In this document: positions 3,001 to 6,000 of the stretch, piece after piece
Layout: the number at the start of each line of letters is the position of its first letter
Numbering within the stretch: position 1 is the stretch's first letter
DNA from: Escherichia coli O127:H6 str. E2348/69
GTDB taxonomy: Bacteria > Pseudomonadota > Gammaproteobacteria > Enterobacterales > Enterobacteriaceae
Strand: one strand, 5' to 3'
Assembly (NCBI RefSeq): GCF_000026545.1
Contig: NC_011601.1
DNA: 64,000 nt
Program-made: the position numbers

Positions 3001-6000
3001 ACGACGAGATTGTGCAGCATCGCAGAGTCGCCCTGTTGGAGTTGATCCAAAAGCATATTCGCCAGCGCGATCTGATGGGGCTTATTGACCAACTGGTAGT
3101 ATTACTGGTTACAGAGTGTGCTAATGACAGCCAGATAACTGCGCTGTTAAATTACATTTTACTGACTGGTGATGAAGCGCGTTTTAATGAGTTTATCAGT
3201 GAAATTACCCGTCGACTGCCACAACAAAGGGAGCGAATAATGACGATTGCAGAGCGAATTCATAATGATGGATATATAAAAGGGGAACAGCGCATTCTTC
3301 GATTGTTTTTGCAGAATGGGGTAGATCCTGAATGGATACAAAAGATTACCGGACTTTCGGCAGAGCAAATACAGGCATTAGAGCAGCCCTTGCCTGAGCG
3401 TGAGCACGATTCATGGCTCGAGAGCTAATATGGAACTATCGCTATGCGCCTCCAGCATATCCAGCACCTGATCCCACTGGGTAATTTCCACCGGACGCGT
3501 CATCGACGGTACTGGCGGCTGGGCTTTACGTTGCGCGACAAAATAACCCGAACGCGGCTACGGAGTGATGAGGTTCATCGTCTCCAGCGTCTGATACGCC
3601 TGCTGCACGGTACTGATGCTGACGCCGTGCTCCTGACTTAAGCAGCGTACCGACGGCAATTTCTCCCCGTGACGATACAGCCCTTGCTCAATCCGCTCGG
3701 CAAGCAGAGTTGCCAGACGTTGATAACGCGTCATGCTGTATTCCTTATTTGGACCATACAGAGAGAAAAAACGGTACAGATGAGGCTAAAAAACCGGATG
3801 CAGATGCTGTTTTAATCTGTCTGTATGTTAAATAAAACTAATATTTGCATCTGTATTGTGAACTGCCAGAAGACGGATGATTAAGCCTCTGAAAGATGAG
3901 GAGGCAGCAGATGGAATTTCACTAAAACAAAGCCAAAGCGCCGTTTATCGGTTTCGTACAACTCTGGCAAGCGGTGAGGAGCTGGTGGCGGCAAATGCAG
4001 ACCCGACGGGTGTTACAGCAGATGAGTGATGAGCGGTTGAGGGATATCGGGTTACGCAGGGAGGATGTGGAGTGAGAGGGCAATTCCCCTTCCCGTATGG
4101 GGAAGGGGAGAGAAACTTAGCGTGGCGTTTTGCTACTAATCACCCCAATAAACTCCTGCACCTGCTTTTGTTTACGCGCCGACAGCTTGCACACCTGGCG
4201 CAGTGACTGCATCAGTTCGCTCTCTTCGGCGGCGGGTGGTTGGGCGGTGAGGACAATACAGCCTTCCATCACTTTGACATCTACCGCCGTGCCGGTGGCA
4301 AAACCGGCGGTTTCCAGCCACTGACCTTTCAGGGTGATGGCGGGAATACGGCTGTAATCCGGGTAGCGGCTCGCATAACTCACGGTTAATTGACGGTTAT
4401 TTGCCGGGGAGACTTCTGCTTCGAACGGTTGTGCAATAGAATGCGTGTCAGTCATGATTACTATTCTCGTGAAATAGGGATTGTGATGAGCGGTGCGGGT
4501 GTGTTGGCGCACATTCGCACCGCGCTAAATACCTGGATATATCATCAGTAAATACAGGGAAAGTCCAGCTAAAAATAGAAAATAATAAAAGCGTTACTGG
4601 AAAGATCTGGAAGAGAAATTAACGTTAATTCAGAATGGCCGGATAACAAAGTGTATCCGGCCTTCATAATTAATTTAAAGCACTCATATGATGTTCTTTA
4701 AAATTCTCTGCCTGTGCCAGCACACCTATATAAACATCATCATTTGCTACTGGCGGGAATTTATGCTTGTGTAGAAGCAGAATAAGTTCAACTTTCAGTT
4801 TCGCTTTAATATCATCGCGTTTACTCCAGTCAGGATACTTCGATGTGTTGTCAACCACGCTTTTCATCTCTTTTGCCAGTAATTTTTGTAATAACTGGAA
4901 CTTCGTTGCCGGAAGTTTGAACTTGTTAATTCCAGTGGCTAACGCGCTGGAATTTAACAGCAAAATGGTACGCTTTTATCACAGCAAAGATGAGAGGGAG
5001 ATGATGGCGTTTTTGGTAGCGGCTATCAGGCGTGACTAATATCTTAGATATACATTCATAACGCCCGGTACAGCGTTACCGGGCGTTATGGAGATAATTT
5101 ATCATTTTTACATATATTGTGGGCTTTGCTCATAGGTTTTTAGTAGATGCTCATTTAACGCACCTTCACCGTGCAAGGTTACCAAGAGATTGCAACGTGC
5201 TCGGGTAAAACCTACATAGAGTCTCTTTATATCCTCACTCAAATCATCGCTATTATCCCGTGTTCTCGCTGCATCAATAATGACAACTGAGTGAAACTCA
5301 AGTCCTTTGCTGCTGGGTAATGGCATAACAGAAATACGCTCTTGTTCTGGCGTCCAGGACTTTTTATCTGCAGAGCTTACAATAAGATTAAAGGGGATGT
5401 TTTTCGATTCAAGTACAGAACTTAGAGAGTTAGAAAGGGTGTGAGTTGATGGACTTAGTATAGCAATTTCAGACCATGGAATCCCTTGTTCATTTTGCTC
5501 TGTAATCCATTCGACTGCTCTTGCTATTTCTTCGTCCTGTGTGTCGAAATGTTCAAGGTTGGGATAATCGCCATTCATTCCTCCCGCAGCAGGTTTATGA
5601 TAGGTTAAAGAACTATCGATATGGCTATTAAGATAATTAAATGCAATACAACTGGCAAAGTGTAGGATTTGCTGTGTGTTTCTATAATTTATATTAAGAA
5701 TGGTTGTGCGTCCTGTCGCTTTAATATCTACGCTGGACAGTGTAAAGTCTAATGCTTTCTTTTTTTGGTAAATTGACTGAGCATCATCATAAAGGAATAG
5801 CAAATTCTCGTCCTGAGAGTCAGTCATTTTTGCCAGGATTTTTAACCATTCGGGCTTAAAATCATGTCCTTCATCAATTAATACAGCGCTGTATTGTTCT
5901 GGTTTTATTTTTCCTGTCTTGAAACCATCAGTCAACGCTAGCTCCATATTTTCAAAAATATTATCCCCTTCTGGAATAGTGATCTTGTTTTCTTTAATTT

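Follow-up and report, generated by a model that had tools for sequence, protein, structure and literature searches.

The symE/symR locus of Escherichia coli O127:H6 str. E2348/69 belongs to the enterobacterial immigration control region (ICR) and is, with high probability, its canonical type I toxin-antitoxin-like module, repressed by LexA and kept as an autonomous cassette. We analyzed it within a window of 64,000 nucleotides, the whole stretch of DNA under study (National Center for Biotechnology Information RefSeq assembly GCF_000026545.1, contig NC_011601.1). An earlier note, made from the sequence of this window, had proposed that a LexA-controlled symE/SymR pair outlasted the adjacent restriction genes, and this core reading is upheld: SymR is intact, the box is orthologous to that of strain K-12, and a stump of hsdR is still in place. 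A symE/SymR pair with a LexA site is real, textbook material, already known and without departure from the published descriptions (PMC1891008, PMC12707154); because it is common to about 100 other sequenced E. coli, the arrangement is also an ordinary one.

The ICR is a classic enterobacterial defense island with yjiN and yjiA as its limits, and cassette-like variation within it has already been described (PMC12707154). The RefSeq annotation of E2348/69 places a variable segment between these same two genes. Read in the orientation of the window, the order is yjiN, an Rpn family gene, a GntR-family (yjiR) pseudogene, yjiS (DUF1127), and symE on the minus strand, followed by an hsdR-remnant pseudogene, a gene for a 616-aa “3'-5' exonuclease,” and yjiA.

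symE and SymR are complete

Is the module itself intact? As the earlier note stated, symE is uninterrupted: the minus strand at 4117–4455 translates into 112 amino acids plus a stop, ending in the C-terminal allele ...GVISSKTPR (RefSeq symE, WP_000132632.1). The protein matches the Pfam family PF08845 SymE_toxin (5.2e-21; 74.9 bits, with a cut-off of 29) and has an AbrB/MazE-like domain. The idea that symE is inverted relative to K-12 was refuted, since the K-12 annotation also puts the gene on the minus strand. No PADLOC model matches SymE, and the notion of SymE as a defense protein was dropped accordingly.

The antisense RNA SymR, whose position was missing from the earlier account, is encoded on the plus strand at 4450–4526. 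This 77-nt RNA covers the symE start codon, the Shine-Dalgarno sequence, and the 5' untranslated region (UTR). It matches Rfam RF01809 over its full length, 1–77, at 88.9 bits (E 5e-17; gathering score 61), and its fold is a pair of hairpins (−37.6 kcal/mol; z-score −5.1). The symR −10 hexamer TAGAAT (4437–4442, plus strand) lies 7 nt upstream of the SymR +1 at 4450, inside symE codons 5–7. The symR promoter is thus embedded in the symE open reading frame (ORF), as has been described for K-12 (PMC1891008), and the promoter region, together with at least symE codons 1–19, is identical base-for-base to K-12.

More generally, symE (yjiW) and symR of K-12 share with E2348/69 their position and strand in the ICR, the length and fold of SymR, and the place of the LexA box, 19 of whose 20 bases agree. 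The differences are few. The K-12 box reads ATATACAG, compared with ATATCCAG here; the Shine-Dalgarno sequence, which forms a loop of SymR, also differs; the last eight residues of SymE are distinct (AGKQKVA in K-12, SSKTPR here), giving proteins of 113 and 112 aa, respectively; and the neighbors are hsdS and mcrB in K-12 but the hsdR stump and yjiS in E2348/69.

The C-terminal difference recurs among other strains as two alleles that follow the downstream neighbor. The 112-aa form, ...GVISSKTPR, is found where yjiS is directly next to symE, and the 113-aa form, ...GVIAGKQKVA, where mcrB or gmrSD is next. As the allele tracks the neighbor, the left junction of the cassette must lie within the final ~8 codons of the gene. 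Other forms of the gene were seen as well: an in-frame stop at codon 31 in Pseudocitrobacter vendiensis, an IS1 insertion in E. coli LST200A that takes the ORF and spares the promoter, LexA box, and SymR, and a shortened C terminus in Klebsiella spallanzanii, whose SymE has 104 aa.

The LexA box at the symE promoter

A CTG-N10-CAG motif is indeed present upstream of symE, at 4533–4548 and 76 bp upstream of the ATG. It forms the core of a 20-mer at 4531–4550 whose sense CTG occupies 4548–4546 and whose CAG occupies 4535–4533. The box had been misquoted, however, as taCTGgatatatcatCAGta; the plus strand is acCTGgatatatcatCAGta, and in the sense of symE it reads TACTGATGATATATCCAGGT. Position by position, the plus strand at 4531–4550 is ACCTGGATATATCATCAGTA, that is, ACCTG...CAGTA rather than TACTG...CAGTA. 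The description of the site as a strong LexA box and a good match to the consensus rested on this misquote, which scores 18.2 bits, and falls with it, the true site scoring 13.4 bits.

What, then, makes the box credible? The answer is its position and orthology rather than its score. Only one base separates it from the K-12 symE box (TACTGATGATATATACAGGT), an A-to-C change at box position 15, directly 5' of the CAG, and C at this position is also found in 8 of 18 known boxes. The K-12 yjiW/symE box is experimentally validated: it is reported to bind LexA and to make the gene strongly inducible by DNA-damaging agents (PMC1891008, with reference to Fernandez De Henestrosa et al. 2000). The K-12 gene has a heterology index of 7.9, which places it mid-table among SOS genes, and its expression depends on LexA (PMC11228462). 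The C allele at position 15 is the common one, occurring in at least 2,046 genomes, compared with 2,872 that have the cassette, as counted by megablast with a centered 55-mer; the count is a lower bound because such a query seeds a match only if the variant base agrees.

Conservation points the same way. We compared 22 symE loci from E. coli, E. albertii, E. whittamii, Pseudocitrobacter, Citrobacter, Raoultella, and K. spallanzanii, which contain 10 distinct box 20-mers. Every one of them keeps CTG and CAG, while 10 of the 14 other positions vary, and the spacing between the box and its flanking motifs shifts by 1–3 bp across genera. The invariance of CTG and CAG across orthologous boxes therefore supports function. 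Classical E. coli SOS boxes (consensus TACTG(TA)5CAGTA) have the same CTG-N10-CAG pattern and AT-rich center and overlap the promoter, as the symE box is predicted to do; by comparison, the half-sites of the symE box are weak, with CTGA for CTGT and CAGGT for CAGTA.

The putative promoter overlaps the box. A predicted −35 element, TGGACT (4562–4567, minus strand), comes from the motif GCTGGACTTT, which is conserved across genera; the element marks the limit of the conserved cassette on its upstream side. At a spacing of 17 nt, the predicted −10 element TGATAT (4539–4544, minus strand) falls inside the LexA box, so that LexA would occlude it; in Raoultella the same spacing falls on TAGATT.

Evidence against a regulated and selected module

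Several observations weigh against the reading of the locus as a LexA-repressed module under selection. The symE LexA box is moderate to weak. We scored it with a symmetrized weight matrix trained on the table of 18 LexA boxes in PMC3009722, a set in which symE is absent. On this scale the consensus reaches 31 bits and the symE box of K-12 14.8, and the training boxes span 13.2 (polB) to 28.2 bits; at its 13.4 bits the E2348/69 site thus ties at the bottom with polB, the weakest classical box of the published set. This modest score does agree with the heterology index of K-12 symE. Although the box is the top matrix hit in the window, the window has 25 CTG-N10-CAG cores, so the core alone is unspecific, and 26% of windows simulated with a first-order Markov model reach at least the same score. 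Since about a quarter of simulated windows equal it, the motif match alone is not above chance, and with an expectation of 0.28 equal-scoring hits per 64 kb by chance, the weight matrix was set aside as stand-alone proof of the box. In addition, RNA sequencing in K-12 found symE, though LexA-dependent in its expression, to be induced only 1.5-fold by azidothymidine (AZT) (PMC11228462). A consensus promoter scan of 3900–5200 called neither the symE nor the symR promoter, their elements being too weak for its thresholds, so the symE −35 and −10 elements stand as predictions. A search for SOS or symE data from E2348/69 itself turned up nothing relevant, and the SOS inducibility of symE in this strain is one that we infer from near-identity to K-12. 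The Shine-Dalgarno sequence is GAG here and GGAG in K-12. Within E. coli, the ratio of nonsynonymous to synonymous substitution rates (dN/dS) of symE is 0.2–0.8, raised by the switch of C-terminal allele and only moderately below 1. Finally, the biochemical role of SymE is disputed. It was first described as an endoribonuclease-like toxin (PMC1891008), while later work, as summarized in PMC11894785, detected no RNA cleavage by SymE and attributed its toxicity to a sequence-nonspecific DNA binding that condenses the nucleoid.

Could the CTG-N10-CAG motif be no working operator at all in E2348/69, reflecting the constraint on the −10 element or mere chance, with symE outside SOS control? A score at the floor of the known boxes that so many simulated windows attain would fit this explanation, as would the actual flanks of the site, ACCTG/CAGGT compared with TACTG/CAGTA in the consensus, and the fact that AZT induction of symE is not significant even in K-12 (PMC11228462). 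Yet the site is a single base away from one reported to bind LexA and to drive SOS induction, and that base is common in genuine boxes. Moreover, CTG and CAG stay fixed across genera amid changes in the 10 bases between them and in the spacing to flanking motifs, which a −10 constraint alone would not bring about. We consider a nonfunctional box highly improbable, and a genuine, if modest, operator remains the favored reading.

Deletion and replacement of the upstream restriction genes

How much of the adjacent restriction system is left? The earlier note held that the hsd and mcr neighbors were gone. This is true of mcrBC, hsdM, and hsdS, but a 263-bp 3' end of hsdR from a type I system of M-S-R order remains at 4670–4932 on the minus strand, directly upstream of the symE promoter. 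RefSeq annotates it as a pseudogene for a [quoted passage not shown] and it matches Pfam T1RH-like_C (1.2e-17) and PADLOC REase_I (4.4e-25). With hsdR reduced to this length and no hsdM or hsdS, the locus has no functional type I restriction-modification (R-M) system. The stump shows that such a system was truly deleted or replaced here, rather than never having been there.

The breakpoints can be placed by comparison with strain FDAARGOS_1284. Its sequence is collinear with window positions 1–4880 at 98.8% identity, including the last 210 bp of hsdR, and positions 4866–4932 match a segment of hsdR 283 bp further in, which amounts to an internal deletion. This 283-bp deletion lies between TTTT(G/T)CCAGT direct repeats (TTTTGCCAGT / TTTTTCCAGT). 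Homology then ends at 4932/4933 and restarts at 7288, at the yjiA stop codon. The left breakpoint, ~380 bp upstream of the LexA box, is thus inside hsdR, and for this reason the event spared SymR, the symE ORF, and the promoter with its LexA box. FDAARGOS_1284, XH987, and the ST131 strain EC958 carry the haplotype yjiS-symE-hsdR/S/M-restriction endonuclease-brnTA-yjiA, which shares symE, SymR, and the LexA box with E2348/69; relative to it, the rest of hsdR, hsdS, hsdM, the endonuclease gene, and brnTA (~7.7 kb) have given way to a 2.35-kb cassette.

This replacement cassette (4933–7287, minus strand) ends at the yjiA stop codon. It is AT-rich, at 37.7% GC compared with 50.7% for the window, and has no homology to FDAARGOS_1284 or K-12. 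It carries a gene at 5108–6958 for a NERD protein with a UvrD-like superfamily 1 helicase, the 616-aa product that RefSeq calls a “3'-5' exonuclease,” in which Pfam recognizes NERD, UvrD-helicase, and UvrD_C. The earlier note had pointed to a new candidate defense gene beside symE. A candidate defense gene is there, upstream of symE, but it is not new: the protein matches the full-length PADLOC model C3a187 “NERD+UvrD” at 2.8e-140 and is therefore no uncatalogued candidate. Weaker PADLOC matches were to GajB, AbiO, Nhi, and DRT-associated helicases, and a perfect 16-bp hairpin (5055–5092) stands just past the stop codon of the gene.

A second hairpin, at 4633–4665 (minus strand; −21.1 kcal/mol, z-score −5.4), follows just past the hsdR stop and probably shields the symE promoter from transcription arriving from upstream. 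A terminator scan of 3900–5200 made no call there, because the U tract is weak, nor did it call the hairpin on the other side of symE described below.

The yjiS junction and the eroded framework

On its downstream side, symE adjoins yjiS through a 57-bp junction without homology to K-12, and no remnant of mcrBC or gmrSD is present on this side. The junction contains a GC-rich hairpin at 4085–4109 (−20.2 kcal/mol and z −3.3 on the minus strand, −24.4 kcal/mol and z −4.4 on the plus strand), which is a probable bidirectional terminator. FDAARGOS_1284, XH987, and EH08-18-36 have the same junction together with the ...SSKTPR allele, so this is an old haplotype and not the trace of a recent loss in E2348/69. 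The supposed loss of mcr genes in this lineage is accordingly not sustained, and mcrBC was probably never lost here.

Beyond the junction, the framework genes have suffered. In yjiS (3912–4075), codon 5 (3924–3926) has changed from GAA to TAA relative to K-12, and RefSeq instead annotates an ORF of 42 aa that opens at 3947 with a codon other than ATG; FDAARGOS_1284 is annotated alike. The left framework at 2358–3734 is also eroded compared with K-12: yjiR lacks ~1.3 kb, its aminotransferase part, and is left as a GntR-family pseudogene. In addition, mdtM is missing from the interval that separates yjiN from the rpn gene.

Might symE/symR likewise be a decaying relic that escaped deletion, unselected and effectively silent? 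The stop in yjiS, the truncation of yjiR, and the absence of mdtM show erosion all around it, and the Shine-Dalgarno sequence weakened to GAG, the within-species dN/dS of up to 0.8, and the loss of symE elsewhere (to IS1 in LST200A, to an internal stop in P. vendiensis) lend the idea some weight. Against it, the ORF, SymR, the symR promoter, and the invariant bases of the LexA box are all intact, and they are so too in the ~100 genomes of the same haplotype and in 2,872 genomes overall, while dN/dS at larger distances, against other genera, is 0.10–0.24. We regard the relic explanation as very unlikely and retain the reading of a maintained module.

Distribution of the cassette and its neighbors

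Is symE tied to particular defense genes? The block shared between ICR types, comprising symE, symR, and the promoter, spans 4138–4580 (minus strand). It has 93.9% identity to K-12 over 443 bp and is the only K-12-homologous block in this part of the window. Its GC content of 51.9% is core-genome-like, compared with ~37% in both flanking defense segments. Of the 5,426 complete E. coli genomes searched, 2,872 carry the symE cassette. The NERD-UvrD cassette is far rarer, at 103 of 5,426, and was chromosomal and adjoining yjiA in every match examined. The junction between the symE promoter and the 3' end of hsdR occurs in 967 genomes and the interior of that hsdR in 865, a difference of ~100 that matches the count of NERD-UvrD genomes. 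XH990 and CS5L have the same hsdR stump and NERD-UvrD gene but gmrSD on the other side of symE.

The type I neighbors of symE belong to IA, IB, and M-S-R systems: in K-12 and 99-3165 the gene lies next to the hsdS of an IA-type system, in O157:H7 next to the hsdS of an EcoAI-family system, and elsewhere, for example in FDAARGOS_1284, next to the hsdR of M-S-R systems. In EH08-18-36, symE is retained while hsd is cut to a 29-aa hsdS stump beside IS1; in LST200A, the reverse is seen, with symE removed by IS1 and hsdRMS and mrr remaining. In Raoultella and K. spallanzanii, symE/symR and its LexA box stand beside genes for a sorbitol phosphotransferase system, a sugar ABC transporter, Endonuclease_NS, and transposases, and no restriction genes lie near symE at these loci. 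Two metagenome-assembled genomes labeled “Bacillota bacterium” also carry near-identical E. coli-type symE/symR cassettes; these are most likely mis-binned Enterobacteriaceae contigs.

These contexts bear on the possibility that symE is coupled to the defense genes of the island, for instance by acting as an addiction module that stabilizes it or through an SOS-linked partnership with the type I system or with NERD-UvrD. The gene does directly follow type I systems from three families, Kawano et al. linked SymE homologs with R-M systems and mobile elements (PMC1891008), and a review counts symE/symR among the toxin-antitoxin systems of the ICR (PMC12707154). Nonetheless, symE persists without a type I system both here and in EH08-18-36, its neighbors in Raoultella and Klebsiella are unrelated metabolic genes, a type I system lacks it in LST200A, and SymE matches no PADLOC defense model. 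Coupling of this kind is extremely unlikely, and the evidence favors an autonomous cassette.

One stretch of the cassette departs from its general conservation. The symE Shine-Dalgarno region, which doubles as the apical loop in the 5' hairpin of SymR (4466–4472, minus strand; sense TCACGAG), is hypervariable between strains. The 22 orthologs have 15 different sequences in this 7-nt loop, while the flanking stem CTATT/AATAG is invariant; the mean pairwise difference is 0.45 in the loop and 0.11 over the whole aligned stretch, flanks included. The loop is the most variable stretch of the cassette, its mean difference exceeding several-fold the synonymous divergence between E. coli symE genes, and its variability goes without discussion in the 2007 SymR paper (PMC1891008). 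One could picture the cassette as a fixed “hinge” of the island, with homologous exchange on both sides (a type IV slot and a slot for type I or other systems) at junctions in the last eight symE codons and at the −35 element, and with a SymR loop that diversifying selection drives into strain-specific pairing alleles. Such a loop would be comparable to those that determine incompatibility in plasmid antisense RNAs. We hold this elaboration to be unlikely.

Proposed mechanism and significance

In K-12, LexA, SymR, and Lon all control SymE, and overproduction of SymE is toxic (PMC1891008). Because every element in E2348/69 is near-identical to its K-12 counterpart, we infer that the K-12 mechanism should apply here. 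symE would be transcribed from a weak sigma-70 promoter with its predicted −10 element within the LexA box and would be repressed by LexA until damage-triggered LexA cleavage. The abundant and stable SymR, made from a promoter in the first symE codons, would pair with the 5' UTR, Shine-Dalgarno sequence, and start codon, blocking symE translation and lowering the level of its mRNA, and Lon would degrade SymE.

Why has the module been retained? In the scenario we propose, the cassette would be a GC-normal, autonomous “framework” unit between two AT-rich defense slots that may be exchanged independently. In the E2348/69 lineage, the M-S-R type I system, the accompanying restriction endonuclease, and brnTA would have been swapped for the NERD+UvrD gene, while purifying selection on SymE would keep its ORF open. 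Retention of symE/symR is best explained by the combination of a selected, autonomous cassette and a deletion endpoint that happened to fall inside hsdR.

The significance of these findings beyond correct annotation is small. For island biology, they yield as by-products the breakpoints of a swap from a type I system to NERD-UvrD and the frequency of the resulting haplotype, ~2% of complete E. coli genomes. As for the module itself, its sequence indicates that E2348/69 has a complete and probably functional symE/SymR despite the gutting and refilling of the restriction island around it, and symE appears to act as an autonomous framework element of the island rather than as an accessory to hsd or mcr.

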